From Oscillospiraceae bacterium (GTDB lineage Bacteria; Bacillota; Clostridia; Oscillospirales; Oscillospiraceae): a stretch of 64,000 bases of DNA. Positions 26,028 through 54,241 of this stretch are shown here, in pieces (position 1 is the first letter of the stretch; each line of letters starts with the position of its first letter). The notes under the pieces are model-generated. The model searched no databases, was not told where the DNA came from, and worked only from the letters and a program-made list of their open reading frames with translations. The stretch is taken from positions 72,844-136,843 of the forward strand of contig JAFQCV010000006.1 of the NCBI GenBank assembly GCA_017416325.1, read 5' to 3'. The translations under genes were made by a program, and so were the position numbers.

Positions 26028-26247
26028 AGCCGAGGGGAATCGATTTGCATTGATGGATTTTTGGAACATGAATCGATTGTAGTCTACAGTCTGCTGACTG
26101 CATCCTACAATCTATGGAATCTCCCACGGGCTAAACAAGTGTCCACCGGACACTTGTTTACACCGGCAATATTGCCGGCGCCGCCCTTTCGATTCCATCC
26201 CTCGGCTCCACCATAAAAAACAGCCGCCCAAATGGGCGGCGTTTTTA
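26028..26247 (-). repeat. structured element downstream of ssrA carrying inverted and direct copies of the tmRNA 3' end
   Basis: 16-bp direct repeat agccgaggggaatcga (26028-26043 = 26254-26269); 21-bp inverted repeat (26199-26219 vs 26242-26262); palindromes at 26132-26160 and 26163-26178. Confidence 0.8.
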
Positions 26248-26595
26248 TGGTGGAGCCGAGGGGAATCGAACCCCTGTCCGAAAGCAACTTGGAAGGAACT
26301 TCTCCGGGCGCAGTTTGTTATTTACATTCCCTCAACCCGGCGAAAACAAACATCCTACGGGAATCAGTAGCTTCATGATGCGTGGCACGGGCAAAGCTTA
26401 CCGTACGCACGTTCTCCACTCAAATCACACCCAAGCCCGGCTCGTGGACCTTCCGGGGAGGATGCGCGCCTAATTAGGCAGCGAATGCAACAGTATTGTT
26501 GTCAGTTAAATTTAAAAGGTACCCGTTTTATCGTGGTCAGGCGCCACGGCCCGCTATTCCAGCCTCACTACCCCCGTCGAAACCAGTACGGCCCC
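26248..26595 (-). ncRNA. ssrA: tmRNA; predicted tag (A)DNNTVAFAA
   Basis: 5' GGGGCCGTACTGGTTTCGACGGGG, 3' GACAGGGGTTCGATTCCCCTCGGCTCCACCA; internal frame GAC AAC AAT ACT GTT GCA TTC GCT GCC TAA; 348 nt; downstream of smpB. Confidence 0.95.
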
Positions 26596-26653
26596 GGATA
26601 GTAAGCAAGAATCATTTGATGTTGTGGGGCGCTGTGCGCCCCACTGGGCTACA

Positions 26654-27193
26654 TTAGAATCTTCCGTAAGGATCGGGCAGCTTCTTCAGTTCTGCCAGCT
26701 CCGCGCCGTTGAGCTCCACGGTGATGGAAGCGATCTTCTGCTCGGCTACAGGGCGATCCTGAGGACCGGTCTGGGTGGCTGCGATAGCATCCACCACCTC
26801 AATACCAGAAGTTACCTTACCAAAGGCGGCATACTGTCCGTCCAGGTGCTTGGCATCCTGGTGCATAATAAAGAACTGGCTGCCGCCGGAGTTGGGGGAG
26901 GAGGAACGGGCCATGGAAAGAACGCCCCGCTTGTGCTTCAGATCGTTCTTGACACCGTTAAAGAAAAACTCGCCCTTGATGCAGTAGCCGGGGCCGCCCA
27001 TGCCGGTTCCTTCCGGGCAGCCGCCCTGGATCATGAAGCCTGGGATGACCCGATGAAAGATCAGTCCGTCATAGTAGTTGTGGCTGCACAGATCTACGAA
27101 GTTGGCAACACTCTGGGGTGCCTTCTCGGGATACAGTTCGCCCTCGATAATGCCGCCGTTTTCCATTGTGATCTTAAAAGTAGGATTTGCCAT
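26654..27193 (-). CDS. cyclophilin-type peptidyl-prolyl cis-trans isomerase
   Basis: APQSVANF, YDGLIFHRVIPGFMIQGG, GVLSMAR, SGGSQFFI, HLDGQYAAFG. Confidence 0.93.
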   Translation of the reverse strand: MANPTFKITMENGGIIEGELYPEKAPQSVANFVDLCSHNYYDGLIFHRVIPGFMIQGGCPEGTGMGGPGYCIKGEFFFNGVKNDLKHKRGVLSMARSSSPNSGGSQFFIMHQDAKHLDGQYAAFGKVTSGIEVVDAIAATQTGPQDRPVAEQKIASITVELNGAELAELKKLPDPYGRF

Positions 27194-27194
27194 A

Positions 27195-27656
27195 TTAATA
27201 TCTCTCCTTCATAGCCCGGTCGATTTGACGCTTGGCGTCTTTCTCTGCCGCGGCTTGTCTTTTATCATATAATTTCTTACCCTTGCACAGTCCGATCTTG
27301 ACCTTTACAAGGCTGCCTTTTAAATAGACGGAAAGGGGGATGATGGAATAACCGTCCTGCTTGACCTTGCCAAACAGCCGCATAATCTCCCGTTTATGCA
27401 TCAAAAGCCTTCTGGGGCGTCTGGGGTCGGGGTTAAAGCGGTTTCCGTGGTCATAGGGGGAGATGTGCATTTGGTTGACCAAAAGCTCACCGTCTTTGAT
27501 TCCGCACCAACTGTCCTTCAGATTGAGTGTGCCGGCCCGGATAGACTTTACTTCAGTGCCTTGCAGTTCAATTCCTGCTTCAAACTCTTCTTCAATGAAG
27601 TATTCATGTCTGGCTTCCCGGTTGGTTGCCATGATTTTGACGCTCAGTTTTTCCAA
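27195..27656 (-). CDS. smpB: SsrA-binding protein
   Basis: NREARHEY, EAGIELQGTEVKS, R.R.LLMHKREI, GKKLYDKR; TTG start after AGGAGG. Confidence 0.97.
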   Translation of the reverse strand: MEKLSVKIMATNREARHEYFIEEEFEAGIELQGTEVKSIRAGTLNLKDSWCGIKDGELLVNQMHISPYDHGNRFNPDPRRPRRLLMHKREIMRLFGKVKQDGYSIIPLSVYLKGSLVKVKIGLCKGKKLYDKRQAAAEKDAKRQIDRAMKERY

Positions 27657-27704
27657 GACGGCTCACCTCCTTGCTGAGAGCATTATACCATAAATGTCAA
27701 GCTA

Positions 27705-28370
27705 TCAAAACAGAAATTCTTCGAATTCTTGTGTTGTTTGAAAGCTATAATTGCATAGCTGATTCATTTCTGTGCCGATTTCCGGTACGCCCAGGTCGTT
27801 CCAACCTGCGTAGGCTACGGCGATTCCCAGAGGCGCGGCCATTTTGCAGGCCAGCTTCATATCGTCAACCACAAGAATTTGATCATTGGTAAGGGAAAAT
27901 CGGCGCATAATATCCTGTAAAGGATATGGGTTGGGTTTTCTTTGCTGTTCCGGCAGTTCCCAGCCATATACAGCATCCGGTAAAAATCCAAAATGGGTAC
28001 GGTAGTCTCGCAGAATATTATCTTTACTGGAATGGGACACCACGCAAATCAGTCCGCCGGCTTCTTTCTGGTGCTTAAGAATATTCTCAATATCGGGGTA
28101 GGGGGCCGGTGTGTTTTGCAGCACATAGTCCATCCACATAGTATGCTCTTGGGCCAGTTCTTCTTCTGTAAAACCAAAGCGCAGCCGGCAAAGCTCTGCA
28201 AAACCGTAGTGGTGGCAATCACGCACAAAATCCGAAAAAGACATGGTTTTCCCCGGCCGGAATACTTCAAGCACATATAGAAAAAAGGGATAGCTCATTG
28301 TTTTCATGCTTTGCACAACGGTATCATCATGATCCATAACCAAGCAGGAGTATTTCAGCACAGGGTCCAC
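27705..28370 (-). CDS. HAD-superfamily hydrolase
   Basis: DHDDT motif I, VSHS, KPNP, VDD. Confidence 0.8.
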   Translation of the reverse strand: MDPVLKYSCLVMDHDDTVVQSMKTMSYPFFLYVLEVFRPGKTMSFSDFVRDCHHYGFAELCRLRFGFTEEELAQEHTMWMDYVLQNTPAPYPDIENILKHQKEAGGLICVVSHSSKDNILRDYRTHFGFLPDAVYGWELPEQQRKPNPYPLQDIMRRFSLTNDQILVVDDMKLACKMAAPLGIAVAYAGWNDLGVPEIGTEMNQLCNYSFQTTQEFEEFLF

Positions 28371-28434
28371 CTCTTTTTGGAGAATATTTGTATTATACCA
28401 AACTCACTGACTACTGGCAACCGGAAAATTCCTC

Positions 28435-28463
28435 TTGCTATAACCGAACAAATGTGTTATTAT
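28435..28463 (+). promoter_or_regulatory. sigma-A promoter with an imperfect LexA (Cheo) box between -35 and -10
   Basis: TTGCTA (28435-40), 17 nt, TATTAT (28458-63); CGAACAAATGTGT at 28445-28457 vs Firmicute consensus GAAC-N4-GTTC. Confidence 0.55.
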
Positions 28464-28487
28464 AAATACAAATAGGAGGTGAGCGGT

Positions 28488-28754
28488 ATGGGGATCAATT
28501 GTCCTGTGGATGTGATATCCGTATGCAGTGCCAATGGGGATATCCGGCCGCTGCGCTTTCGGATGGAGGACGATTCCCATGGACTGCTGCGTATTGATAT
28601 CGATGAAGTGGTAGGAATGAAACCCGTGCAATATGTAGGTGTTGAAGCGCAGATATTTCTGTGCAAGGCGACCGTAAAAGGGAAGCAATGGCTGTTTGAG
28701 CTGAAGTATACCATTCGTACCCATACTTGGTGTTTATTCCGGAGGATCTACTAA
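28488..28754 (+). CDS. small hypothetical protein translationally coupled to dinB
   Basis: AGGAGG RBS, ATG 28488, 88 aa; TAATG overlap with the polymerase start. Confidence 0.75.
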   Translation: MGINCPVDVISVCSANGDIRPLRFRMEDDSHGLLRIDIDEVVGMKPVQYVGVEAQIFLCKATVKGKQWLFELKYTIRTHTWCLFRRIY

Positions 28755-30031
28755 TGGAAAACAGGGTGATATTTCATGTGGATGCCAACTCTGCTTTTCT
28801 TAGCTGGTCTGCGGCTTACCGGGTGAAGGTGCTGCAGGAGACGGAGGATCTTCGGGAGGTTCCCTCTGTAGTGGCAGGAGACAAAGCGTCCCGTCATAGT
28901 ATCATTTTAGCAAGAAGTACGCCGGCCAAAAAACTGGGCATCCAGACGGGTGAGCCGCTGTTTCAAGCGCTGGAGAAGTGTCCGAGCTTAAAAATCGTTC
29001 CCCCGGATTATGAATTGTATGTGAGAGCTTCCCGGAGCTTTGTAGAGCTTTTGAGAAGCTTTACCCCTGCTGTGGAGCAATATTCTATCGATGAGGCCTG
29101 GATGGATATGACCGGGACCACCCGGCTTTGGGGATCCCCCAGATTGGCGGCAGAGAAGCTGCGGCAGCGGGTATGGGAAGAACTTGGCTTTACTGTGAAT
29201 GTGGGGATTTCCTCAAACAAGATTTTGGCAAAAATGGCGGGAGACTTCGAAAAACCAAACAAAGTCCATACGCTGTTCCCGGAGGAAATGGCAGATAAAA
29301 TGTGGCCGCTTCCTGTGCGAGATCTGTTTTTGGTAGGCGCGGCGACAGAAAGAAAGCTGAATCTTTTAGGAATTTATACCATTGGTCAACTGGCTGGGGC
29401 GGATGTGACTTTACTGAAGCGAAAGCTGGGAAAACACGGAGAAACCATCTGGCATTTTGCCAATGGCCGCAATGCAGACCTGGTTACTCCGGAACCGGCA
29501 GAAAACAAAGGTTACGGAAATTCTACCACCACACCCCGGGATGTAACTTCAGAGCAGGAGGCGTATCAGATCCTTTTGAGCCTGTGTGAAACGGTGGCCA
29601 GCCGGATGCGCCAAGACGGCCAGTGCGGGCGGTGTATTTGTGTGCATCTTCGCACCAATGAATTTCGGAATTTTTCTCACCAAAGCATGCTGACAGGCGC
29701 AACCAATATTACCACAGAGATCTTTGAAGCGGCCTGCAAGGTGTTTCATGAAGCTTGGGACGGCGTGACACCACTGCGTCAGCTTGGGGTACAGATGACA
29801 CGACTATCCAAAGAACCCTATCAGCAATTTGACCTTTTTTCTGAGATGTCACCTCAGCGATATGAAAAAAAGCTGCGTTTAGATGAGGCTGTGGACAGCT
29901 TGCGGGATAAATTTGGAGAAGATATTATCCAAAGGGGCAGATTTGTCAATACCGGAGAAGTTCATATGGGCGGTGGCTTGGACAAAACGCGTCGCACAGG
30001 TGTCACCAAGCCAATCCCAAATGAAATATAA
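28754..30031 (+). CDS. dinB: Y-family DNA polymerase (DinB/Pol IV-like)
   Basis: FHVDANSAFLS, EQYSIDEAWMD, NKILAKMA....KP, and a C-terminal QFDLF beta-clamp-binding-like motif. Confidence 0.9.
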   Translation: MENRVIFHVDANSAFLSWSAAYRVKVLQETEDLREVPSVVAGDKASRHSIILARSTPAKKLGIQTGEPLFQALEKCPSLKIVPPDYELYVRASRSFVELLRSFTPAVEQYSIDEAWMDMTGTTRLWGSPRLAAEKLRQRVWEELGFTVNVGISSNKILAKMAGDFEKPNKVHTLFPEEMADKMWPLPVRDLFLVGAATERKLNLLGIYTIGQLAGADVTLLKRKLGKHGETIWHFANGRNADLVTPEPAENKGYGNSTTTPRDVTSEQEAYQILLSLCETVASRMRQDGQCGRCICVHLRTNEFRNFSHQSMLTGATNITTEIFEAACKVFHEAWDGVTPLRQLGVQMTRLSKEPYQQFDLFSEMSPQRYEKKLRLDEAVDSLRDKFGEDIIQRGRFVNTGEVHMGGGLDKTRRTGVTKPIPNEI

Positions 30032-30059
30032 AAACCGCTCTGTACCAGAGCGGTTTTTT
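30030..30059. terminator. bidirectional terminator
   Basis: aaaaaccgctctg-(tac)-cagagcggttttt. Confidence 0.8.
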
Positions 30060-30066
30060 AAGAGGA

Positions 30067-30318
30067 TCAAAGCTTGGCTTTAGCTTCCTTCAAAGCAGTT
30101 GCCAGCTGGTCGGGGCAGGAGGTATTCTTCATGCCGCAGGTAGTGCCCTCCAAACGGGCGATGACTTCGTCGATATCCATACCTTCCACCAAAGAGCTGA
30201 TGCCCTTGAGATTGCCGTTACAGCCGCCAATGTACTGGACATTTTTGAGCTTTCCGTCTTCAATTTCAAAGTTAATGTACTGAGAACAGGTTCCTTTGGT
30301 CTTGTATTCGAATTGCAT
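30067..30318 (-). CDS. TIGR03905-family TSCPD-domain protein
   Basis: KG.CS, GGCNGNL.GI..LVEG, G..CG...TSCPDQLA; start ATG 30318. Confidence 0.88.
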   Translation of the reverse strand: MQFEYKTKGTCSQYINFEIEDGKLKNVQYIGGCNGNLKGISSLVEGMDIDEVIARLEGTTCGMKNTSCPDQLATALKEAKAKL

Positions 30319-30337
30319 AGATATTTCTTCCTTTCTT

Positions 30338-30811
30338 TTATTTACACAAATCATCGGTAACAGCGCCGATAAGCGCAATCAGCGGCTCCGGTGGAAGGAT
30401 CATTTGATGTCCACGTTCACCGGCAGAAACCGCAATTTCATCCCAGAGGATACAGGTTTCATCAAAATGCGTGGGATACCTTTTCTTCATTCCCACAGGG
30501 CTGCAGCCACCGCGGATATATCCGGTCAGACCAAGCAGTTCCTTCACTGCCACCAGTTCCATACTTTTATCACCGGCGGCTTTTGCTGCCTTTTTTAAAT
30601 CCAATTCACAGCACACAGGGATACAGAAAACATGGATGCCGGTACGCTCGCCTCTGGCAACCAGAGTCTTAAAAACCTGTTCCGGCGGAAAACAAAGGGC
30701 AGCTGCCGCGTGATTTCCGCTTAAATCGTTTTCGTCATATTCGTAAAAAAATTCCCGGCAGGGGATATGTGCCTGCTGCACCAAACGAACTGCATTGGTC
30801 TTTGCTGCCAT
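30338..30811 (-). CDS. ybaK: Cys-tRNA(Pro) deacylase
   Basis: KTNA.R, QVFKTLV, LDLKK.A, TGYIRGGCSP.G.K, SAG.RG. Confidence 0.92.
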   Translation of the reverse strand: MAAKTNAVRLVQQAHIPCREFFYEYDENDLSGNHAAAALCFPPEQVFKTLVARGERTGIHVFCIPVCCELDLKKAAKAAGDKSMELVAVKELLGLTGYIRGGCSPVGMKKRYPTHFDETCILWDEIAVSAGERGHQMILPPEPLIALIGAVTDDLCK

Positions 30812-30949
30812 GTTAAATCACCGGGAAACATTATACTACATTTTTCTAAGGCTTGCAAGCGGTCAATCGAGAAAAGCTTTGCAGATTGCTTGCCTTTTTC
30901 GGGAAACTGTGGTAATATATTGCCATCATTATCCTAAGAGGCGATTTTT

Positions 30950-31966
30950 ATGGAACAGGTAGAAATTTCTAAAAAGAGAATGCTCTCAGGCATCAAACCC
31001 AGCGGTGACCTTACATTGGGAAGTTATTTGGGCGCGGTTAAGAACTGGGCTGAGCGAGCGGAGCAGTATGATTGCTTCTATTTTATGGCGGATCTGCATG
31101 CGATTACGGTTCGCCAGAACCCGGCAGATCTCCGCCGCCGCACTTTGGAGCAGTTGGCGCAGTATATTGCTTGCGGTCTGGATCCTGATAAAAACACACT
31201 GTTTATACAAAGCCATGTGCATCAGCATGCTGAGCTGGGGTGGGTGCTTGACTGCTACTCTATGTTCGGCGAGCTTAGCCGGATGACCCAGTTTAAGGAC
31301 AAGTCTGCCAAAAATGCGGACAATATCAATGCTGGGCTGTTTACTTATCCCAGCTTGATGGCTGGTGATATTCTGCTTTATCAGCCGGATTTGGTTCCTG
31401 TTGGAGAGGATCAGAAACAGCATGTGGAGCTGACCCATGTGATCGCTCGCCGTTTCAATAGCATTTACGGCGATGTATTTAAGATTCCTGAGCCCTTTAT
31501 TCCCAAGGTCGGTGCCAGAGTTATGAGCTTGACGAATCCTCAGGCTAAGATGTCTAAGTCCGAAAATGAGGACACCGGCCGTGTTCTGCTGATGGACCCT
31601 CCTGAGGTGATCATGAAGCAGTTCAAGCGGGCAATCACGGATTCGGATACAGAAAACTGCGTCCGCTACGATAAAGAAAACAAGCCTGGTGTATCCAATT
31701 TGATGACGATCTACTCTGCTGTAACCGGAAAGACATTTGAGCAGATCGAATCAGAATTCTCCGGCTGTGGTTACGGGAAGTTTAAGCCGGCTGTTGGTGA
31801 AGCGGTTGTAGAGCATTTGCGTCCCATTCGGGAGGAATCTGCCCGTTTGATGAAAGATAAGGCCTATCTGGAGTCTGTATACCGGGAAGGCGCCCAGAAG
31901 GCATCTTTCGTAGCGGAGAAAACTCTGCGAAAGGTCTACAAAAAAGTTGGTTTCGTTGCAAAATAA
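30950..31966 (+). CDS. trpS: tryptophan--tRNA ligase
   Basis: SGIKPSGDLTLGSYLGA, ADLHAIT, YP.LMA.DIL, VPVGEDQKQH, KMSKS. Confidence 0.97.
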   Translation: MEQVEISKKRMLSGIKPSGDLTLGSYLGAVKNWAERAEQYDCFYFMADLHAITVRQNPADLRRRTLEQLAQYIACGLDPDKNTLFIQSHVHQHAELGWVLDCYSMFGELSRMTQFKDKSAKNADNINAGLFTYPSLMAGDILLYQPDLVPVGEDQKQHVELTHVIARRFNSIYGDVFKIPEPFIPKVGARVMSLTNPQAKMSKSENEDTGRVLLMDPPEVIMKQFKRAITDSDTENCVRYDKENKPGVSNLMTIYSAVTGKTFEQIESEFSGCGYGKFKPAVGEAVVEHLRPIREESARLMKDKAYLESVYREGAQKASFVAEKTLRKVYKKVGFVAK

Positions 31967-31973
31967 TCGAAAA

Positions 31974-32003
31974 AGCAGCATCTTCATTTCGGAGATGCTG
32001 CTA
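31974..32003. terminator. terminator hairpin after trpS
   Basis: agcagcatct-(loop)-agatgctgct. Confidence 0.65.
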
Positions 32004-32030
32004 TTATAATATGACACGGTTTTTCCGGCA

Positions 32031-32366
32031 TTACATATACAAATACAGCGCCAAAGTAAGGAGCGCGGTATTTTGATTTTCCTTACTGTCGCCGGACATC
32101 AAAAGCAGCAGCAGAATCACCAGAAGATCCCCGGTGTCAAAATCTTTTGGGAGTAACTGCCGTAAAAATCCTTCTACGTTCGTTCCGCTGGGGGTTGGCC
32201 TGTAGGGCTTTTCGGATATGGGAGCTGTGTAGCAGGGAGGCTCAGTCTGACATGTTTGCTGGGGCGTATCCGCTTTTGGAGACTGCTTATTTCCCTCGCT
32301 GCGCTGTTCCTGCACCCGGCTTCTACGGTAAGAACCATCCGATTGGGGGATGTAACGGTTATACAC
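32031..32366 (-). CDS. hypothetical protein
   Basis: 111 aa; MYNRYIP..DG.Y N-terminus and hydrophobic C-terminus (DTGDLL..LLLLL); third of three tightly packed genes. Confidence 0.7.
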   Translation of the reverse strand: MYNRYIPQSDGSYRRSRVQEQRSEGNKQSPKADTPQQTCQTEPPCYTAPISEKPYRPTPSGTNVEGFLRQLLPKDFDTGDLLVILLLLLMSGDSKENQNTALLTLALYLYM

Positions 32367-32372
32367 GCAGCA

Positions 32373-32747
32373 TCACCAACCTTTTCCCTTGCTACCCAGC
32401 GCAGCGGCGGCAAAGCTGGCGATTTTTGCGGCGCGCATGGCTTTTTCCAGTTTTGCGATCCGGCTTTGGCACAGGAATGGACTAAGCGCCCGCAGCAAGC
32501 CTTGCTGGTTCTTATCAATGTTGGTTTGCTGGGTCGCTGCGAAGACCTTTTGAAGCATCTCGCTGTCAAGATTGAGCATTGGTGCGCCGGTTTGCTGTAC
32601 CGGTTTTTCCGGGAAAGAGGGCTCTTGTCTCTTCGGGGGTTCGTTTGCTGGATCTGACTGCCCTAACGATTGCGCCATGGCCATAATTTGGGACATCATC
32701 TGCGGGTTGGCCAGAACAGAATTCAACTTATCCTCCAGATTATCCAC
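32373..32747 (-). CDS. hypothetical helical protein
   Basis: 124 aa, GTG start after GGGGGTG; LL.AL.PFL...R..KL..AM..AK pattern. Confidence 0.7.
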   Translation of the reverse strand: MDNLEDKLNSVLANPQMMSQIMAMAQSLGQSDPANEPPKRQEPSFPEKPVQQTGAPMLNLDSEMLQKVFAATQQTNIDKNQQGLLRALSPFLCQSRIAKLEKAMRAAKIASFAAAALGSKGKGW

Positions 32748-32751
32748 CCGG

Positions 32752-32982
32752 TCACCCCCTTAACCGTTCCAACAGGGCTTTGGTCTCCGGGGTGGCCATG
32801 ATCCCTTCCAAGGCTTTTTTTAGCTGCGCATAGTCACCGGAGGCGGCCAGGGCGAAAGCTTGTTCCATTTCCTTGCTGTGCTTGCTGTTTAAGGCGGAAA
32901 GGAGCTGCTTTCCTGCCTCGCTATTTGCCAGTGCGGCAGCTTCCTGGATGGAATTAGGGCTGAAATCAGGTTGTTTTTGCAT
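32752..32982 (-). CDS. hypothetical protein
   Basis: 76 aa from ATG 32982 after GGAGG; first gene of the three-gene unit. Confidence 0.65.
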   Translation of the reverse strand: MQKQPDFSPNSIQEAAALANSEAGKQLLSALNSKHSKEMEQAFALAASGDYAQLKKALEGIMATPETKALLERLRG

Positions 32983-33144
32983 AGAGGTACCTCCATTACG
33001 GTCTGGATATTCCTGAAGTATTCTATGCATCCTAGACATGTATTGTTCCTGTTTGATTGTTTATGAAAAAATATGTTTGGAAGGTAGAATTTTATTGAAA
33101 TTTGTGTTATACTGCAAGCATTAAAGTGTATGGTTGGTTAATAT

Positions 33145-34409: not shown

Positions 34410-34410
34410 G

Positions 34411-34578
34411 TCAAAGGGTGACCAGGAAAAGAATTGCAACAACGATTCCTAATGTTGTCGCCCCGGTGAGCAGATAGTCGATAAATTTGTTCAGTCGGTA
34501 GCCTTGTGTGGCTGCATTGGGAAAAGAAGTCTGAGCTTTTGTATATCTTTTGTGATAGATTGCAGTTCTTGATTTCAT
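34411..34578 (-). CDS. small 55-aa protein with a C-terminal TM helix (absent from the ORF track)
   Basis: MKSRTAIYHKRYTKAQTSFPNAATQGYRLNKFIDYLLTGATTLGIVVAILFLVTL; AAGGAGG RBS at 34587-34593. Confidence 0.65.
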   Translation of the reverse strand: MKSRTAIYHKRYTKAQTSFPNAATQGYRLNKFIDYLLTGATTLGIVVAILFLVTL

Positions 34579-35181: not shown

Positions 35182-35182
35182 A

Positions 35183-36815: not shown

Positions 36816-36817
36816 AA

Positions 36818-37770: not shown

Positions 37771-37859
37771 GGAGAGTTGTCCGAGCGGTTTAAGGAGCTA
37801 GTCTTGAAAACTAGTGATTCCGAAAGGAACCTAGGGTTCGAATCCCTAACTCTCCGCCA
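37771..37859 (+). tRNA. tRNA-Ser (anticodon TGA)
   Basis: GGAGAGTTGTCCGAGCGGTTTAAGGAG, anticodon arm CTAGT-CTTGAAA-ACTAG, long variable arm, GGTTCGAATCC, encoded CCA; TTGACT/TATAGT promoter upstream. Confidence 0.97.
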
Positions 37860-45700: not shown

Positions 45701-48700
45701 TGGACACTTGGGCTGTCAATGACACGGGTAACCAAAGCAACTATATGAGCCTGGCATATGTGAGAAGCGAAAAGCTGACTTCCGTTACCGGCGCAGCCAC
45801 TGTTGTAGAGTTTGATATGTCAGTGGACAATATGCCGGATGGCTACACGGTATCAAGTGCTCCCCGCCGCGCTTTCCTTAATAACGGTATCGCTGTATCC
45901 GTCCGTGACGAGAGAGATACTACAGACGATAATGGTTTTCTCTTCGGTCTGGGCAAGAAAAACGGCCAGCTGTACCTGATCTACTGGTACTACGATACCG
46001 CAACACAGACCAATAAGTTTGCAGAAATTCCTGCAGGTGTCAGCGATAGGTGCTATGTCCGCGTGGAATATGTCTACGGCGAGGGTACTGCTGTAACAGC
46101 TAAGTACTATATCAACGGCATTTTAATCCTTGAACAGAGTAATTCCTATATCACCGGAGGCGCCTTTGGTACGACTGCCACCAACTTAATTCAATTCTAT
46201 GCTATGGTCCCCCAGAAATCCGCATCTGCCACCCATAAGGTGGTTGCGACCTTCCATAATGTCTCTGTGGGTCACACCCAGCCTACTTTGATAAGCGACC
46301 TGTCTGTGGAAGTTCCCAAGGTGGAAGCCTTGATCGATGCTATCGGGCTTCCTATAACGCTGGACAGCAAGGCTAAGGTTGACGCGGCCCTGAATGCCTA
46401 TAACAGCCTAAGCGATCTGGCTAAGACTCAGGTTTCCAACCTAAATGTTCTGGAGACTGCCCAGGCTCGGCTGCGGATGCTGCAGAACAGCTATATCCAT
46501 GCGGCATTCTCCAGTGAAGAGTTGCTTCTGGACGGAAAAATCTTTGAGACCGCCTACCGTATGAATGTTAAAATGACCGACACCCTGAAGTTCGGCGCAG
46601 TCTGGAGCAAGAAGTATCTGTATCTTGCCTTTGAGGATGAGAGTGCGCCTGCTGTCACTGACCTGGTCATCAACGGCAAGACGGTGAAGCTTACTTCCTC
46701 CAACAGCAAGGCTGGCGCTGTCGGCCGTGAGATTCGGATAGCCTTGTCGAGTTTGGGTATCGTAGGCTATGATAAGACTTATCCCATTTCCTTCCGCGTT
46801 GGCGACATCTACTGGAGCGGTACTTTGATTCAGGACAGCAACGATTATGAGCCTCTGACCCACGGCAGCCTGTACTACGCCGCTGCCGGCTCCAGCGATA
46901 AGAAGTCTCTTGTTCTGAACACTTTAACTCCTGATGCTGATGGCAATAAGAGCCGCAGCTTGGGTATGTTCACCAACGAGAAGCTTGCTGCTGTTTCCGG
47001 TAAGATCACCATTCTGGATTTAGATGTGGTCATCAACAACATGCCGGATAACTGCACAGTTGCCAAGGTTCCCAGTCGAAACTTTATTAATAACGGTGTG
47101 ACATTCACATACCGGGATAACCTGTCTCCTGCTGCTGATGGCAGCGCTGCGGCTACGGAAGGCATGCCATTTGGCCTGGGCAAGCAGAATGGCAAGCTGA
47201 TGCTGTATTATTGGTACAACGATGCCAACGGCAATGCGCAGCTGGGCTCTGCGGACGTTCCTGCGGCAAGCAGCTATCATCTGCGCGTGGAATACGGCAA
47301 TGGCAACGGTAAGGTGACCTCTGCCAAGTACTTTATCAATGGCCTCCTGCTGGCTGAGACTGCATCTTCCCGTATTACCGCAAGCTCCTTTGGTACAAAG
47401 GCTGAAAACATCCTGCAGATATTTGCCCAAGCTTCTGTGGAGACCGAGGCGGGCCGTGTTGACCTGCATGTCAGCAATGTTTCCGGTTCTCATCCTCAGC
47501 TGCTGGTCATTGACGATAAGTCTGCCGCAGCCAATATGGATAATGTCATCGATGCCATCGGCACCGTGACACTGGACAGCACGGAAAAGATCGTTGCTGC
47601 CCGTGAGCTCTACGACAGCCTGACCTCCGCCCAGAAGAAGCTGGTTACCAAGCTGGCCGTTCTGGAGGCTGCAGAAGCTAAGCTGCGGGCTCTGAAGGAT
47701 CAGATCAACGCACAGTATACTGCCTATGCCTTTGCGGAGTATACCACTCAGGACATGAATATTGATGGTGTACTGGAAGAAAAGATCTGGCGCACAAAGC
47801 AGACCATCTTTGGAGTTGGCAAGCTGGGTATGGCTTGGGACTTCAATTACCTGTATCTGACCGTTACCGGCAGCAAGGTGGGTACCTTCAAAAATCTGAA
47901 GATCAACGGTATGTCTGTTACCGATCTTGGTGTAGCCAAAGGAAACGTCCGGGAAATGAAGATCCTGCTGTCCAGCGTGGGTATCAAGGCTATTGATTTC
48001 ACCCATGGTTATGACCTGTCCTTCTCTCTGGACGGCAAGACCTGGGAGGGTCAGCTGATCTTCGATACCGGAACTTACGCGGCAATGAAGCCTTCCTCCG
48101 TTTCCTGGGGTGGCTCTAAGGACGGTTATAACGGTGTCCTTAAATCCTTGGATTCCACTAAGGATGGGAAGCGCGTATGTGTTATCTACAATAGCACGAA
48201 GCTGGATTCCATCAACGGTATGACCACCATTCTGGAGTTTGATCTGAAGGTCAATTCCATGCCCAATAACGGTTATGACAGCGGTGTCAACCGTAACTTC
48301 CTGAGGGGCGGTGTCAGTGTCTGTATTCGTGACGATGACCTTAATCTGGGCGAAAACGGTTATGGTACGGAGGGCTTCCTGCTGGGTCTGGTTCGACAGA
48401 AGGGCAATATGTACCTGGTCTACTGGGAGGACTCCACGGATGAGTATGTTTATGTGCTTGTGGATGACTTCGGCACCAATAACTATCACCTGCGTATTGA
48501 GTACGAATATCACACCAACGACGATGTTTCTGCCAAGTACTATGTCAACGGTTTGTTTGTAGCAGAATCTCATGATGCGAAGGAAATTGCAGAGGACGGC
48601 GCTTTCCTTACCAATGCTACAGACCGTATCCAGGTCATGGCTTACGGTACAGATGAAGGTGCGGTAGACGCAGTTATTTCCGACCTCTCTATTTCCAAAA

Positions 48701-51700
48701 ACCGTTTTATGGATAACCCCGATCCCCGGGATGATATCACCAAGGATGCTATCTTTGGCGTACTGGATCTGAACCATGTTCAGAAGGACCTGACTTTGCC
48801 TAAGGAGTTTGTAACCGTCAACGGCGAGCGCTTTGCGCTAAGCTGGAAAACCAGCAATTCCTCTGTGGTTACCAAGGAAGGTAAGGTCACCCGTCCTCTG
48901 GAGGATCCTGCCTCTGCTACCTTGACTCTGGTGGTGGACGGTGAGGAGCTTTGGGCAGTTAATGTAAAGGTCGATCCTATGTCTCTGGAAGAAACGGAAT
49001 CTCCCGAAAATGTGGATGCAGCTTTCAGCAAGGCACCCATTGTCATCGACGGCATCCTGGACGATGAAGGCTGGAGAATGAGTGGCCGCGTCCTGGATCG
49101 GAATAAGCAGCTGTATGCGGAATACGGCTTCCAATGGACACAATCCTACCTGTATGTAGCGGTTGAGTATCTGGATGGGATCAATACCCTGTCTTTGAAG
49201 CTGAACGGCCGTTACTTCACGCTGAAGGACGGCAAGCTGTACCGTGGTGGCGAGAATGTGGGCGGAAGCGGCGCTCTGGCAGTTACCAACGGCAATGTTG
49301 TGGAAATGCGTATTCCGCTGTCCGTTCTGGGTCTGCCCAGCAAGATCAGCTCCTACGGTTATTCCATTCCAATGTCCTTGAAGGCAGGTCCTTATGTGGG
49401 CAACGGCAAGCTTCTGCGCCTGTCTAATATTGACTGGGTCGTTACTGTAAACCGGAACCAGGAAACTCCTGGAGAGGTGCTGAAATCCGTTGATGCCTAC
49501 CACGGCGCCCAGCGGCTGGCCAACGGCTACCGCCTGTTTGATCTGTACGGTGGCACCAACACGGCGAAAAACCGCAGCTATTTTAACATAACCGGAACTG
49601 ATGCACTCTACGAAAACTTCTCGGACCGGACCTACGACACCCGTGTGGAGTTTGACTTCTATGCAGAAGCCCTGCCTGTCCTGCCCACCGACGGTTCTGC
49701 CTACAGACCGCAAGGCGGCCTCTACTCCGTCTCCGGCTTGACCTTCACAGGCGGTGAGGCTCAGAATGCAGATGGCTATGGCGACACCTTCTCCTACGGT
49801 ATTATCAATACCGTTAACGGCTTGATGTTTGTTCTGAACATCGCCGGTGATATACAGACCCATTTGCTGAACAAGCAGGTTGGTGAGAAGTTCTCTGTGG
49901 CTGTGGAATGGAGAAGCGATGATTCCATGGATCTGTTCATTGACGGCGATTTCGTTAAGACGTTCTACGGTGCAGCAGCTTGGAAATCCGGCTCAGCCAA
50001 CGCCAGCTTAGCCGGAAATATGTATGTCTTCTTCGAACCGCAAAGTGTTGCGGATAACTATGATGTGTACGTTACCAACTTTGCGATGGGTACGGTCCAC
50101 CATGAAGAAAACCTTCTGACGCAGCTGGACTTTGAGGACATACGCGGCAAGAACAAGCTGGAGGATAAAATTACTACAGATTTGGTTCTGCCCACCTCTA
50201 TCACCAACGGTCAGCTGGACAAGGAATACAAGATCACCTGGACCTCCAGCCATTCTGCGGTGAACGCGGCAACCGGCAAGGTCACCAGACCTGAGATCGG
50301 CGCTTCGATCGTTACTTTGACTGCCACATTGTCCAACGGTGAAACTAAGAGCTTTGAACTGGTAGTCTACGGCTCCAAGGCACAAAACGACGGCGTGCTG
50401 CATGTGCTGGAGGATCTGGATCCTGCCAGCGGCGTTGGCAGCTCCAGCAAGGATATCGTCTTCACCTTCGATGACACCAACAATAGTATCATCAAGGTCC
50501 TGGACGGCGAGACTACCATCAACTACGTGGTGCTGAAGGATGGCGACGATAAAGCGCGTCTGCTGCCTGAAAACCTGACTCTGTGGGTCAGTGATGATAA
50601 CAAGGTTTACACCCGTGTCAAGGACTTCAAGCTGCTGCAGGTTGGGGAAAAGTGGTATCTGTATGACTTTGAAGCTGAATGTAAGTATGTCAAGGTCCAT
50701 TATACCCAGCCGGATGGCGAGGATGCTTCTTTCATTGGCACCTACGGCGAAATGATCGACGCAGGCTACCAGAAGGTCTTCGGCGCAACCGATGATGTAA
50801 CCTTTACCCAGTCCTCCTATGTCCTGACCAATAATACCGGGAAGACCCAACAGGACTATGCCTGGACCGTTTCCAAGAAGGATCTGGGCATCACCGGTAC
50901 GGATGCTTCCATCCGCATCTATCTGGACGGCAAGCTGCAGTACCACTATGTCAGCGGCAGCGATGTAGTTGTTCGGATCAATGATCTGGAAAAGGGTGCT
51001 TCTGTGACCCTAACAGTTCTGAGCAGCACCGGCAAAAATGTTATGGATATCTCCAACAAGGAGGGTGTCCATGAAGTGATTTACGGCGTCCGGGAAACCA
51101 CCCTTAGCACGACGAAGTATTTCTACATGACTTTGCCCGCGGGCACCACCTTCCCCGACGGCTCCAGGCTGGAGAAGGAGACCTTGTACTCTCTGAGCGG
51201 CAGCGGCTGCCGTACATCCACCGACGGCGGCATTACCTGGGAAACCTACGCAGTGAAAAACAACGCCCCTGAAGGCAAGCAGCCAGTGAAAGGTTACAGT
51301 CAGGGCGGTTGGATCTTCGACTCGGTCACCGGCCGGATAACATACGAATTCTATGTGAGCGCGAAGGATGTGGAGGTTGCCTCTGATGACAAGCATTATC
51401 ATATCTCGTTTGCGTGCTCCGATGACGGCGGTAAGACCTGGTACCTGCAGTATACAATGCCCTGCCATCTCTGCACGGAAGGTCTGATAGGCGACTACAA
51501 CGTGCCATCCTATGCATTGACCTATGCTGACGCCATCCAGCTGTCCAGCTATGACGGCAAGGGCCCCAATGTGGACTTCGTATTCCCTGTGGGCCATGTA
51601 TGGGCTTATAACGACTCCTATCAATGCTCTGCTATCTACAGCACGGACGGAGGAGATACCTGGCATTACAGTAAGACTCCTATAACCTATCCCTCCACTT

Positions 51701-53892
51701 ACATTGGCGCAGAGGGTGGCACTTCCGAGGGCTGGATCATCGAGCGCTCTGATGGTGTTCTGGTTCTCCATGTCCGGTGTCAGGATAAATCTGCTATCCA
51801 CTTCAAGGTCAGCTACTCCTTTGACAAGGGTATCACCTGGACGAATGAGAATCTGTTTTCCGATTACTATGCAACCAACGGTCAGGCAACCCTTAAGTAC
51901 ATGGAGGTAAATGGCGAGACCACCATGATCTCCACATGGGGCGGCAACAGCTCTCTGGGTGGCGACTCTTACCACCGGAATCCCTTCGTCTTTGCCGCTT
52001 CTGTAAACGACGGTGAGACCTTCCGTAATATCCAGAATATTACGTTCCGGTCCTTCGAAGAGCAATACGATGAAGCCTATATAACCGAAACGACCAATGT
52101 GTCTCTGGCTAAGTATGGCAATAATCTGGTATTCAACTACTCCAGAAATAGACCAGGTGACAAAGCAAAGACCGTGATCGAAGACTTTGACGACTGGTTC
52201 ACCCGTACCAAGGGCGGTTATGACAACTTCGAACACGGCACCGTCCGGTACGAAGGCTGGCAGAAGGTCTACGGAACAAACAATCTGGCATCTGACATTG
52301 CTCAGGGTAAGTACTCTATGCAGGTGGGCCTGGATTCCAGAGTCATCCGCAGCGTTCCCTACCTGCAGGATGGCAAGATCTCTGTGGATATCTATGTACC
52401 TGCCGGCAGTGGCTTCACCTTCGAGCTGCAGAGCGGTCATACCAGAACCTACAACAGTCTTTCCGTACCCATCGCATTCCGGGCTGAAGGCGGCAAGATC
52501 TACTTCGGCGATTCCAATGTCGCTTCGGCTGAGGGCATCCAGGAAGGCTGGAACACCCTGGTCTTCGATCTGAATATGACGAAGGACAAAGCGACCCTAT
52601 CCATCAACGGTGGCGAAGCCATTAACATTCCTTTAAAGATGGACTTCGATGACTACGTCAACTTTATTGCTATCGGTACCGACAAGGTCTCCACAATCTA
52701 TGTGGACGAGGTTCTGATCATCAGCAATCTGCAGGCCGATGTGGCTGTGGATGCGGCTGACAAGCAGGCTGCTGCTGAGGTCGTGGAGCTGATCAAGGCA
52801 ATCAAGACCGCAAGCAACCGGGATGCCGCCATCAAGAAGGCAAGAGCAGCCTTCGATAAGCTGACCCAGGCACAGCAGGATCTGATCGACGCGAGAGTCC
52901 TGGCAAATAACGGCAAGTCCGGTCTGGCAGGCATGATCAACTACTACGAGGAACTCCGTTTGTATGAAGACGGCGACTTGATCGTAGAGCAGATGATCGA
53001 TGAGATCGGCGAGGTTACTTATGTCAATGGCGATAAGATCAAGGCTGCTGAGGATGCTTACAAGAAGCTGACCAGCGCCCAGAAGGCAAAGGTAAGCAAC
53101 TATGGCGTCCTGCGTGTGGCAAGACTGAAGTACAACAGAATCATTGCTCACAAGACAGTCTCTGATCAGGACGCAGCAGAAGCGGTGCAGGAGATGATCG
53201 ATGCTTTGATCCTGTCCAACCCCCTGCGCTATGAAGAAAAGATCACGGCAGCCCGTAAGGCATACAAAGCCTTGTCTGCTGATCAGCTGCCTTTAGTGGA
53301 TGCCAAACACCTGTACCAAGCTGAGATTAAGCTTGCTTCGGCGAAGAAGGTGGAGACTGCCAGAAGATTGGCAAGCATACAGCATCTGATCAACTCTTTG
53401 GATAACGTTACAATAGAACAGATCGCGCTGATCGAAGGATTGCGCGCGACTGTCAATGAGCTGTTAGCTGAGGATAGAGCGGTACTCAACGACCAGAAGT
53501 TGGTCCAAGCTGAACAGATTATCCGCAGCTTGAAGGCTGGCGTTGACAAGAAGACTGTGGATGAATTCAGAATTGCTGGCGTCATCTCTTACATTGACTC
53601 CATCGGTCAGGTCACCATGGAGAAGAAGGCGTTGATCGATGCCATCCGCGCATCCTACGACAAGCTGACGCCCAAGCAGCAGGAGCGTGTCGAGAACATC
53701 GATACGCTGGTGATCGCGGAAGCGACTGTTCTGGCTCAGCTGCAGCTGACCGACGCGGTTCCCAACACCGGCGATACCACGCCTGGTGGTATTACCTACG
53801 AGGCTGCTGTGTTCGTGATGCCTGTCATGCTGCTTAGCGCACTAGCTATGGCTGTCCTGGTGATCTTCCCAAAGAAACGCAAACGCAGATAA
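42778..53892 (+). CDS. giant (~3,700 aa) secreted, sortase-anchored multimodular protein with an Asp-box (BNR/sialidase-like) propeller
   Basis: Signal peptide; six ~400-aa repeats starting with a DGxxDE/W motif; two Ig-like modules (W.SS...GKVTRP); five Asp-boxes; helical repeats; VPNTG + TM + KKRKRR. ATG 42778 after GAGGTG. Confidence 0.85.
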   Translation: MKRFQRVNAFILALALFMSMIPAGVLELKTVAAEPDPDLGKTFLHAAYAATEVVVDGELDTIYRLDVPVGTLRIGAAWDLTNLYLAVNSDNTANVTIMVNGETVTGGVAAGNSCTEYKISLTVAKINDLTGSNTLTVQVGDATPVELQLVLSVNQYAQAVYMEPANGATPGGQTSAAGSITKGTAMILNANSASQGSLAKNQTAAEASTETTTVFEFDVSDLTLPNTSTVTNIGDNGWSIGRYFCSGGLSVTFRDDLDSGTSAFLLSLSNKNGSPVLTYFDNGSANGWVEAALTAADKYHVRVELSYTDDAAPIGTLDMNDTVSAKYFVNGECVAEGNSVRQSGGSKGTSLKNVAQFFTAKKTGLQVTVSDVSVTKIDPTAYNDLVKVKEVMDLIDGIGDTVTLSSKDTINAASEAYDALSSAVKPLVANVQKLEDAKAELNALENSYLLAMFSATEMTLDGKADEAIYTRAVWLSDTLRASLAWDTKNLYLAFTDTNTPNVSNLVINNKAVTVTGDNSKTTTGVRELRIPLNTVDITDLTKIYPISFQIGGLTWAGKVVFDTTAFETISIKDANNGAIKEQDDKVVVIKDLTARSTINAGANLDVWNASTAAATVLEFDLDINSLPETSTQDYSSRYVGTGLNVLVMDDLVTKGQDGNVNQAFKFGFFKQGGVIQLGHAADGEHRFVVVDDNDNGKFHVRVEYSYAEDAEKTVTAKYFVNDVLVATGENVRVNTVGLGTTGGKKVSLRVDSANMDAVLSNLSISKTNPTLVQDLTVRVEELERMIEAIGPVTMDRADYIGEVLDRFNQLSAVAQKLVKNVNVLQDAVTQLNQLENSYLHAVFVPVSVVVDGKADEPVFRRNLILGATEFGAAWDAKYLYLCFAGTTTPNVTELKINGKTVNTAGVTGTGVREIQVALKDLGITSLTVPYAISFKIGVQTWSGKLVLDNVDFGSVPHDNLYYAATGTQDKLSFTLDTWAVNDTGNQSNYMSLAYVRSEKLTSVTGAATVVEFDMSVDNMPDGYTVSSAPRRAFLNNGIAVSVRDERDTTDDNGFLFGLGKKNGQLYLIYWYYDTATQTNKFAEIPAGVSDRCYVRVEYVYGEGTAVTAKYYINGILILEQSNSYITGGAFGTTATNLIQFYAMVPQKSASATHKVVATFHNVSVGHTQPTLISDLSVEVPKVEALIDAIGLPITLDSKAKVDAALNAYNSLSDLAKTQVSNLNVLETAQARLRMLQNSYIHAAFSSEELLLDGKIFETAYRMNVKMTDTLKFGAVWSKKYLYLAFEDESAPAVTDLVINGKTVKLTSSNSKAGAVGREIRIALSSLGIVGYDKTYPISFRVGDIYWSGTLIQDSNDYEPLTHGSLYYAAAGSSDKKSLVLNTLTPDADGNKSRSLGMFTNEKLAAVSGKITILDLDVVINNMPDNCTVAKVPSRNFINNGVTFTYRDNLSPAADGSAAATEGMPFGLGKQNGKLMLYYWYNDANGNAQLGSADVPAASSYHLRVEYGNGNGKVTSAKYFINGLLLAETASSRITASSFGTKAENILQIFAQASVETEAGRVDLHVSNVSGSHPQLLVIDDKSAAANMDNVIDAIGTVTLDSTEKIVAARELYDSLTSAQKKLVTKLAVLEAAEAKLRALKDQINAQYTAYAFAEYTTQDMNIDGVLEEKIWRTKQTIFGVGKLGMAWDFNYLYLTVTGSKVGTFKNLKINGMSVTDLGVAKGNVREMKILLSSVGIKAIDFTHGYDLSFSLDGKTWEGQLIFDTGTYAAMKPSSVSWGGSKDGYNGVLKSLDSTKDGKRVCVIYNSTKLDSINGMTTILEFDLKVNSMPNNGYDSGVNRNFLRGGVSVCIRDDDLNLGENGYGTEGFLLGLVRQKGNMYLVYWEDSTDEYVYVLVDDFGTNNYHLRIEYEYHTNDDVSAKYYVNGLFVAESHDAKEIAEDGAFLTNATDRIQVMAYGTDEGAVDAVISDLSISKNRFMDNPDPRDDITKDAIFGVLDLNHVQKDLTLPKEFVTVNGERFALSWKTSNSSVVTKEGKVTRPLEDPASATLTLVVDGEELWAVNVKVDPMSLEETESPENVDAAFSKAPIVIDGILDDEGWRMSGRVLDRNKQLYAEYGFQWTQSYLYVAVEYLDGINTLSLKLNGRYFTLKDGKLYRGGENVGGSGALAVTNGNVVEMRIPLSVLGLPSKISSYGYSIPMSLKAGPYVGNGKLLRLSNIDWVVTVNRNQETPGEVLKSVDAYHGAQRLANGYRLFDLYGGTNTAKNRSYFNITGTDALYENFSDRTYDTRVEFDFYAEALPVLPTDGSAYRPQGGLYSVSGLTFTGGEAQNADGYGDTFSYGIINTVNGLMFVLNIAGDIQTHLLNKQVGEKFSVAVEWRSDDSMDLFIDGDFVKTFYGAAAWKSGSANASLAGNMYVFFEPQSVADNYDVYVTNFAMGTVHHEENLLTQLDFEDIRGKNKLEDKITTDLVLPTSITNGQLDKEYKITWTSSHSAVNAATGKVTRPEIGASIVTLTATLSNGETKSFELVVYGSKAQNDGVLHVLEDLDPASGVGSSSKDIVFTFDDTNNSIIKVLDGETTINYVVLKDGDDKARLLPENLTLWVSDDNKVYTRVKDFKLLQVGEKWYLYDFEAECKYVKVHYTQPDGEDASFIGTYGEMIDAGYQKVFGATDDVTFTQSSYVLTNNTGKTQQDYAWTVSKKDLGITGTDASIRIYLDGKLQYHYVSGSDVVVRINDLEKGASVTLTVLSSTGKNVMDISNKEGVHEVIYGVRETTLSTTKYFYMTLPAGTTFPDGSRLEKETLYSLSGSGCRTSTDGGITWETYAVKNNAPEGKQPVKGYSQGGWIFDSVTGRITYEFYVSAKDVEVASDDKHYHISFACSDDGGKTWYLQYTMPCHLCTEGLIGDYNVPSYALTYADAIQLSSYDGKGPNVDFVFPVGHVWAYNDSYQCSAIYSTDGGDTWHYSKTPITYPSTYIGAEGGTSEGWIIERSDGVLVLHVRCQDKSAIHFKVSYSFDKGITWTNENLFSDYYATNGQATLKYMEVNGETTMISTWGGNSSLGGDSYHRNPFVFAASVNDGETFRNIQNITFRSFEEQYDEAYITETTNVSLAKYGNNLVFNYSRNRPGDKAKTVIEDFDDWFTRTKGGYDNFEHGTVRYEGWQKVYGTNNLASDIAQGKYSMQVGLDSRVIRSVPYLQDGKISVDIYVPAGSGFTFELQSGHTRTYNSLSVPIAFRAEGGKIYFGDSNVASAEGIQEGWNTLVFDLNMTKDKATLSINGGEAINIPLKMDFDDYVNFIAIGTDKVSTIYVDEVLIISNLQADVAVDAADKQAAAEVVELIKAIKTASNRDAAIKKARAAFDKLTQAQQDLIDARVLANNGKSGLAGMINYYEELRLYEDGDLIVEQMIDEIGEVTYVNGDKIKAAEDAYKKLTSAQKAKVSNYGVLRVARLKYNRIIAHKTVSDQDAAEAVQEMIDALILSNPLRYEEKITAARKAYKALSADQLPLVDAKHLYQAEIKLASAKKVETARRLASIQHLINSLDNVTIEQIALIEGLRATVNELLAEDRAVLNDQKLVQAEQIIRSLKAGVDKKTVDEFRIAGVISYIDSIGQVTMEKKALIDAIRASYDKLTPKQQERVENIDTLVIAEATVLAQLQLTDAVPNTGDTTPGGITYEAAVFVMPVMLLSALAMAVLVIFPKKRKRR

Positions 53893-53915
53893 GCAAAAAA
53901 CACAATTACCCAAGC

Positions 53916-53949
53916 AAAGCCCGGTTCGGCAGCTGCCGAACCGGGCTTT
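53916..53949. terminator. 34-bp perfect palindrome, probable terminator of the giant gene
   Basis: aaagcccggttcggcagctgccgaaccgggcttt. Confidence 0.7.
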
Positions 53950-53966
53950 CTCCATACAACATAGCA

Positions 53967-54149
53967 TAAAAGAACCACACCTTTTGGTGTGGTTCTTTTA
54001 TGGCGGAGTGAGAGGAATTTGCTTTTCTGCGGAAAAGCCACGGCGGTTGCAATATGCCACTGGCATATTGCTAAGTGCCGCCTTTCAAATCCCTCTGACA
54101 CTAATACCTATGCCAATAAAAGCACCACCCATTGGGGTGGTGCTTTTAT
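53967..54149 (-). repeat. structured element downstream of tRNA-Ser(GCT) carrying inverted and direct copies of the tRNA 3' end
   Basis: 21-bp direct repeat with one mismatch (54001-54021 vs 54150-54170); 13-bp inverted copy at 54084-54096; palindrome gcaatatgcc-act-ggcatattgc at 54049-54071; two terminator-like hairpins. Confidence 0.8.
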
Positions 54150-54241
54150 TGGCGGAGTGAGAGGGATTTGAACCCTCGCGCGCTGTTTAGACGCCTACTC
54201 CCTTAGCAGGGGAGCCCCTTCGGCCTCTTGGGTATCACTCC
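54150..54241 (-). tRNA. tRNA-Ser (anticodon GCT)
   Basis: GGAGTGATACCCAAGAGGCCGAAGGGG, anticodon arm CTCCC-CTGCTAA-GGGAG, long variable arm, GGTTCAAATCC, encoded CCA. Confidence 0.97.

Follow-up and report, generated by a model that had tools for sequence, protein, structure and literature searches.

What is the hairpin-rich structure that follows two RNA genes of an Oscillospiraceae genome, and why does it carry, at each site, an inverted as well as a direct copy of the tail of the very gene behind which it lies? The question is raised by a 64,000-nt stretch of DNA from an Oscillospiraceae bacterium (GCA_017416325.1, JAFQCV010000006.1:72,844-136,843, forward strand), the whole of which we call the window, where one such module lies behind the transfer-messenger RNA (tmRNA) gene and another behind tRNA-Ser(GCT). 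On balance, we are inclined to believe that these modules are small, gene-less and non-autonomous DNA insertion units specific to tRNA/tmRNA 3' ends. The original prediction, made from the window alone, had left the choice between a non-autonomous, tRNA-targeting structured element and a non-coding RNA (ncRNA); its first half stands, as the modules form a multi-copy, protein-less family at tRNA ends, and its second half is disfavoured.

Genes for tRNA and tmRNA were called with ARAGORN, and the RNA genes of the window by Rfam as well. The tmRNA gene occupies 26248..26595 on the minus strand (Rfam RF00023, 154 bits). Behind it stands a terminator hairpin, T (26214..26247, both strands), with an A-run and a T-run, which scores as a terminator in either direction. 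Next comes the inverted copy of the tmRNA tail (inv; 26189..26213, minus strand), running from the CCA back to the T-loop; 15 nt are exact, the complement of CCA is included and the T-loop is reached after a 3-nt insertion, and inv forms with the gene end a long palindrome centred on T. The core (26124..26190) belongs to what we term type A and lies, with all its parts, on the minus strand: GAAA is succeeded by a 4-bp stem (26183-26186 with 26128-26131) that encloses an accessory hairpin (26163-26178) and a long hairpin tipped by CC-GGT-GG (26132-26160), and the core ends in GTGG (26124-26127). The closing strand of helix P1 (26114..26123, minus strand) is a short partial copy of the T-loop/T-stem that pairs with the inner end of inv; in the type A alignment, the P1 pairs vary along with the host tRNA. 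A spacer (26044..26113, minus strand) holding a further hairpin (26077-26110) leads to the distal direct copy of the tmRNA tail (A'; 26022..26043, minus strand), which runs from the T-loop onward with 16 exact nucleotides and a decayed CCA end. The accessory hairpin and the hairpin of the spacer were absent from the original prediction.

The second host, tRNA-Ser(GCT), was called by both programs at 54150..54241 on the minus strand, with a promoter-like site at 54279-54307. Its terminator hairpin (54115..54149, either strand) is followed by an inverted tail copy (54085..54114, minus strand) in which 13 nt are exact at the T-loop end and the acceptor part is interrupted. The core (54022..54086, minus strand throughout) represents a subtype of type A, A2, and consists of GAAA, a 5-bp stem (54078-54082 with 54042-54046), a hairpin tipped by CC-AGT-GG (54049-54071), GTGG (54038-54041) and an extra hairpin (54022-54037). 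The distal direct copy (54001..54021, minus strand), CCA included and with one mismatch, doubles as the closing strand of P1, and past it lies a second terminator hairpin, T' (53967..54000, minus strand), that is related to T. Every part that had been listed for the two elements (26028-26247 and 53967-54149) is thus present in its place. The claim that both copies have the same architecture holds for the order of parts; the Ser-GCT copy belongs to a divergent subtype, in which the direct copy itself, after the extra hairpin, serves as closing strand. The third RNA gene of the window, tRNA-Ser(TGA) at 37771-37859, has no module by the inverted-copy test of its own tail.

Many more such sites exist in the assembly from which the window comes (2.0 Mb in 90 contigs, 86% complete). 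When both stretches were compared with this assembly by BLAST, the hairpins were matched at other loci, all of them behind tRNA genes. An exact inverted copy of at least 9 nt of the gene's own last 23 nt lies at +34 to +53 behind 11 of the 36 tRNA/tmRNA genes, as against 1 of 36 in the upstream control, which excludes chance, and 9 of those 11 have the direct copy further downstream. The number of genes with a module rises to about 13 if weaker cases (Ala-CGC, Ser-GGA) are counted, and the genome holds about 20 modules in total. The modules of the family measure about 100-200 bp, and the units examined for an integrase, of 165-230 bp, have no open reading frame (ORF). Two core types can be told apart. 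Type A, the class of both window copies, has a consensus drawn from 18 copies (alignment A1), so that the predicted common GAAA / CC-RGT-GG / GTGG core recurs in 16 further copies in this and other genomes; its order is a closing helix on the T-loop side, GAAA, a 4-5-bp stem, an optional hairpin, an A/T-flanked hairpin with the tip CC-RGT-GG, GTGG(GA) and the closing strand. The Ser-GCT subtype recurs at other loci of congeners. Type B, a sister type, has three hairpins and a GCAAA linker, then the direct copy: the first hairpin has the same CC-GGT-GG tip as type A, the second is almost invariant, and the third is made of a T-run, a GC stem and an A-run. A covariance model of type B recovers 13 copies in the own genome.

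To follow the family further, public genomes, one per species, were scanned with the exact pattern of the second type B hairpin. At least 117 stretches were found, nearly all in metagenome-assembled genomes (MAGs) named Faecousia, Oscillospiraceae, Acutalibacteraceae or uncultured Clostridia; MAGs make up most of the genomes, and their assembly often fails at tRNA loci and repeats. The first 80 loci yielded 83 type B hits, 47 of which lie on the same strand within 200 nt behind an intact tRNA/tmRNA 3' end, and these 47 cover 22 tRNA types as well as tmRNA; most of the remaining hits are beside tRNA 3' fragments or cut by contig ends. Identical core alleles occur behind different tRNAs, and at each site inv and A' match the local tRNA. 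The enrichment at tRNA ends that the original prediction had proposed as a check is found, and its statement that the flanks follow the host and not each other extends from two sites to the whole range of hosts. Among congeners at least 90% complete, the covariance model detected type B in 24 of 40, with 1-12 copies each, and the hairpin pattern was found in 0 of 300 other genomes sampled across the order, among which were one congener and 17 members of the same family that belong to other genera. The type B sequence family is essentially a genus-level one, in a genus of gut Clostridia, and patchy inside that genus.

In loci with an intact host gene, the junctions of the modules fall within the T-loop. 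A' begins with tRNA position 55 in 21 loci and with position 56 in 15, together 36 of 46 loci, and inv ends at position 54 (16 loci) or at 50-53 (27 loci); the start classes of A' and the end classes of inv go together, and the extra CC(CAT) of the 50-53 class is probably a fixed part of the left end of that core. A pristine copy behind a tRNA-Arg(CCG), locus L117, has perfect arms of 39 nt that comprise positions 54-76 and the terminator arm. Older copies have lost the acceptor part, and the approximately 10 bp beside the T-loop persist longest. On average, inv matches the working tail in 13.0 of 22 nt and A' in 17.0 of 22, and inv matches A' in 11.4 of 22. Judging from these sequences, inv and A' look like copies made at birth that decay afterwards. 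Selection for full-length pairing of inv with A' is unsupported, as each drifts from the working tail and their mutual match is only 11.4. In a comparison with primer-binding sites, fresh inv copies carry the complement of CCA, which the tRNA genes here encode; the own genome has one reverse transcriptase hit, at a position unrelated to the modules.

The stems themselves indicate the level at which the modules act. For type A, RNAalifold recovered P1 alone from a MAFFT alignment in which the hairpins were misaligned; covariation was tested in type B, where the structure was set by hand and 100 cores were aligned to a covariance model. In these cores, 98.7% of stem cells are in standard pairs, compared with 81% after shuffling, 24 of 29 stem pairs show changes on both sides, 422 double changes stand against about 11 one-sided ones, and no shuffle reached the observed covariation. 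The covariation that had been named as a test of the prediction is strong in type B. A model-fitted alignment favours pairing, and raw hairpins were counted independently, with results that agree: 38 variants of hairpin 1 gave 366 Watson-Crick, 1 G-T, 1 A-C and 12 other pairs, and 77 variants of hairpin 3 gave 669 Watson-Crick, 3 G-T, 1 A-C and 3 others. G-T pairs therefore account for 4 of 1056 in module stems versus 32 of 1070 in generic terminators of the own genome, whose terminator-like hairpins comprise 1007 Watson-Crick, 32 G-T and 13 A-C pairs. The stems vary widely while their arms remain strictly complementary, without the G-U intermediates that are typical of RNA families. The orientation of the CC-GGT-GG tip is kept in 29 of 38 variants, which makes the element strand-asymmetric. 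A promoter/terminator scan found no promoter of the module's own at either window site. Given complementary stems without G-U, a terminator in front and no promoter, the data point to selection or copying at the level of DNA, and to an element that acts as DNA, whether as a duplex palindrome or as a single-stranded hairpin, and not to an RNA gene. As had been suggested, Rfam was searched for an existing family, and none matches: at the gathering threshold, only tmRNA and tRNA pass in the window, and permissive scans of both window sites gave nothing credible.

From species to species, modules are gained and lost much as small mobile elements are. Downstream of tmRNA, about 12 congeners have no module, six have type B, one of them in tandem, and the window genome has type A, so that the empty sites sought among relatives do exist between species; at the window tmRNA, the terminator and reversed copy are similar to their counterparts in a congener that has type B. 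No hit came from scanning metagenomes for the flank of the tmRNA. Tandem arrays have a period of 165-171 nt, and in one of them inv is complementary to the tail of the real tRNA-Leu over 25 nt without a mismatch and the repeated direct copy has decayed. Footprints are seen as runs of tail remnants, or as linker plus tail. A' is often followed by a hairpin; a target duplication of tail plus terminator was nevertheless rejected, since the distal hairpin shares the proximal stem in only 2 of 23 loci. Separately, we observed tandem runs (up to 5) of a 30-nt unit composed of the last 15 nt of tRNA-Lys and 15 other nt (L243:10000-10216, L080, L090, L093), and related runs, made of tail remnants, lie behind modules.

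How might such a unit arrive? We put forward, tentatively and by analogy, a T-loop cassette mechanism with a folded single-strand site. A unit would consist of the tail from the T-loop onward (A), T, inv and a core of type A or B, with an older, decaying A' behind it. It would enter at the T-loop of the gene, with junctions at positions 54 and 55/56, supply the working tail and push the old tail downstream. As single-stranded DNA, inv and the tail could pair into a helix that mimics the T-arm/acceptor duplex and is capped by the core, and this folded site would be acted on by an enzyme in trans, in the manner of the integron attC or the CTX-phage attP. Arrays would come from repeated entry or from unequal exchange between palindromes. 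We infer the insertion point, the single-strand folding, the enzyme in trans and the re-matching of the flanks from the patterns described above.

Several points weigh against insertion units of this kind. No excised form, no strain-level pair of empty and filled sites with common flanks and no enzyme was found. A simple T-loop move from one tRNA to another would give a chimeric tRNA, so that the model would need an extra step in which both flanks are re-matched. The terminator beside the gene sometimes looks native, and similar tmRNA stems occur in several species, including at a module-less site, which would fit insertion behind the terminator instead. Moreover, inv and A' merely decay, with selection for pairing beyond about 10 bp unsupported, and the near-absence of G-T pairs could also reflect young copies. 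The original prediction held that the ends are templated from the host gene; the loci do show that pattern, with flanks that match the host, and templating as such is a putative process. Flank matching could possibly be achieved by copy-choice at the near-universal, partly palindromic T-loop on both sides of the core, by fold-back synthesis at the terminator hairpin, or by homogenisation of cores between old tRNA-specific lineages. A bolder proposal, which we consider rather doubtful, is a self-retargeting system, in which the core would enter the T-loop of essentially any tRNA or tmRNA gene by means of a widespread enzyme and both flanks would be copied from the target, the reversed flank as a built-in 'guide' or folded site and the other as a direct copy.

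A more conventional origin, as att scars or integrase-less derivatives similar to cis-mobilisable elements (CIMEs), the core being the attP arm region and the repeats the attL/attR of tyrosine or serine integrases, seems to us unlikely. The direct tail repeats do begin in the T-loop, like the known T-loop class of sites, and the size of a unit is about that of a lambda-type attP. The only three module copies in IMG/VR contigs are all at prophage edges; phage records gave no module match. In addition, the same tRNAs often have large serine recombinase elements: 64 of 151 congeners possess a homolog, and in about 14 of 27 loci a module lies right behind the recombinase gene. These recombinases sit between the tRNA and the terminator, in sub-families that match Lys/Glu, Arg, Val and tmRNA ends, and their genes end in frame with a tRNA-like stretch of their own, which consists of a T-loop-like motif, approximately 17-20 nt, and the host's last bases with CCA (L074:4942-6468 on the minus strand, L104, L198-L227). 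However, the similarity among recombinase genes that are 78-94% identical stops at the CCA end, before the variable terminator, so that the elements lie upstream of T and the module is not inside them, and the closest homolog (94% identical, L198) has no module behind it. At first a good candidate for the mobiliser, the large serine recombinase was rejected as a demonstrated one on account of this junction at the CCA end, upstream of the terminator. The elements are hence conventional integrative ones that insert in the 3' part of the acceptor, ahead of the terminator; they explain the cargo and not the modules. Nor do the modules carry an integrase of their own: the units lack an ORF, the nearest recombinases are elsewhere and, of the 9 tyrosine recombinase hits of the own genome, none is beside a module. 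In keeping with the prediction that the window has no mobilising enzyme, no recombinase lies in it; the tyrosine and serine recombinase hits of the genome are elsewhere. Furthermore, a single core family serves 22 tRNA types and tmRNA, whereas integrases are site-specific, and an inverted copy of the target is no known att feature; we agree with the earlier judgement that an ordinary att duplication leaves that copy unexplained.

The cargo itself consists of one or more genes between tail and terminator in some units. Two cargo-bearing cases are in the own genome, a lipoprotein cassette lies between two identical modules behind the tmRNA of one congener, and cargo elsewhere includes RtcB, Shedu SduA and others; a large serine recombinase is directly upstream in two loci. 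Gene cassettes behind tmRNA in two congeners (L036:2117-3300 and, on the minus strand, L037) and behind a tRNA-Pro tail copy of the own genome (C5:45600-46330) share their boundaries, namely a start hairpin with promoter, a common end before the terminator and, immediately ahead of each ribosome-binding site, an 18-nt motif that is nearly palindromic, and the same cargo frame is thus used at different tRNA sites.

Could the modules instead be structured ncRNAs made by tRNA read-through, in which the closing helix mimics an acceptor/T-arm minihelix, is processed by tRNA enzymes and serves tRNA maturation or regulation? We regard this as distinctly improbable. Modules follow the tRNA immediately and on its strand, their conserved loops and linkers are strand-specific, as the orientation of the tip shows, the covariance model gives 86 bits for the sense strand and 30 for antisense, covariation is strong, and the closing helix with three hairpins has a cloverleaf-like outline. 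Given, however, that a strong terminator stands ahead and a promoter is lacking, that double changes are nearly all Watson-Crick with few G-U pairs, in a manner unlike the terminators of the same genome, that modules are patchy among congeners, occur in tandem arrays and are found behind dead tRNA fragments, and that Rfam has no match, an RNA gene is disfavoured. Replication errors alone, through fold-back template switching at the terminator hairpin and palindromic T-loop to give inverted-triplication-like structures, are very hard to credit: in fresh copies, tail, terminator and inv do make up a single perfect palindrome, the loop of the terminator in some cases has opposite orientations in the two copies (the G007 tmRNA and the Leu-GAG locus of the own genome) and the T-loop centre TTCGAA is itself palindromic, but a complex conserved core of two defined types always sits at the same junction in hundreds of loci, the junction positions fall into fixed classes, and stems are shared between distal and proximal hairpins in as few cases as given above.

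Taking the modules as insertion units, how do they compare with known systems? The family is apparently undescribed, our literature searches having returned no description of a tRNA-tail-matched foldback module. Closest to it are T-loop-class integrative elements with their integrase-less derivatives, folded single-strand att sites and MITE/REPIN repeats. Williams, in 2002, reportedly described integrative elements that use the T-loop as a sublocation of tRNA and tmRNA genes. Like these, modules are inserted between direct tail copies that start in the T-loop, as found in the 36 of 46 loci and in both window copies, the gene is kept intact by a replacement tail, and successive insertions stack behind it. 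Unlike them, modules have no integrase or genes and are of about 0.2 kb where those elements extend over kilobases, all of the tRNA types listed above share one core family with tmRNA, and there is the extra inverted copy of the target. The integron attC and the CTX-phage attP(+) are short imperfect palindromes, variable in sequence and conserved in structure, whose paired inverted segments rebuild the duplex that a recombinase recognises. Modules share with them the variable sequence with conserved structure, the cassette-like arrays and, on our model, the enzyme in trans, single-strand folding being in our case a conjecture; the comparison rests on the potential of inv and tail to pair and on the DNA-type conservation of the stems. 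In contrast to attC and attP(+), the paired segment of a module copies the target gene itself, and any link to an IntI/Xer-type enzyme is hypothetical.

In being small, non-coding, multi-copy, hairpin-rich and patchy, with inverted ends and, on our model, a dependence on an enzyme in trans, the modules also resemble miniature inverted-repeat transposable elements (MITEs) and repetitive extragenic palindromes (REPs) or REPINs, from which they differ in having inverted ends that derive from the host and change from site to site and in lacking both a fixed target duplication and any autonomous partner that could be found. A MITE was rejected because module ends vary with the host tRNA, the repeat takes its length from the tRNA tail and no partner insertion sequence (IS) was found. 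Membership of a REP/REPIN-RAYT system was likewise rejected, the RAYT-like gene on C90 being flanked by a different repeat, and the link to HUH nucleases that the original prediction had entertained was not found: the genome's own REP/RAYT system uses other repeats. That system comprises two RAYT-like (Y1 HUH) genes, at C90:8700-9500 and C56:11650-12250, each with its own REP hairpins, which start with a GTAG-type motif; it is of the classical REP/RAYT kind, and its sequences have no relationship to those of the tRNA modules. The bridge (seek) RNA of IS110/IS1111 was rejected as well, PF01548 not being found in the own genome at its 86% completeness. Finally, the tycheposons of Prochlorococcus form tRNA/tmRNA-anchored islands of stacked elements with partial tRNA repeats and cargo, as our modules do; unlike the modules, they encode recombinases and replication genes (bioRxiv 10.1101/2020.12.28.424599). 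They are described in that paper's text without hairpins or palindromes, and the word 'inverted' occurs there once, in the title of a reference.

If the modules are mobile, they represent a new way to colonise the most conserved genes of the cell without breaking them, and they could explain why tRNA gene ends are hot spots for islands, defence genes and recombinase elements. A core that gains target-matched flanks whenever it reaches another tRNA would suggest that some hitherto unknown activity, of templating or recombination, is at work, and this might be of use in programmable insertion. Even on an ordinary reading, the family is a useful marker, being genus-restricted, abundant and not in Rfam. 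The modules are also liable to confuse assembly, through tandem arrays and contig breaks, and tRNA annotation, through partial hits to 'permuted tmRNA'. One such sub-threshold Rfam match, of 39.5 bits, lies at 26189-26278 and stems from the reversed acceptor strand; the reversed strand behind tmRNA is a possible source of false two-piece tmRNA calls.

Two further features of the own genome deserve mention. In the DNA that immediately precedes the window, three modules that match tRNA-Pro(GGG), one of them behind a dead tRNA-Pro 3' fragment, are spread across 23 kb (C5:43000-68500); the DNA between them encodes bile-salt hydrolase, GH36 and sugar-acid genes and has no integrase, and the region appears to be an island delimited by modules. 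A dispersed repeat of about 270 nt, which is not tRNA-linked and has no Rfam match, occurs in 23 copies (C24:7446, C3:13172, C90:26367 and 20 more). It contains a CC-GGT-GG-tipped hairpin beside an apparent reverse complement of a tRNA-like 3' end with CCA, and is flanked by copies of a short GC hairpin, the loop of which has opposite orientations on the two sides.

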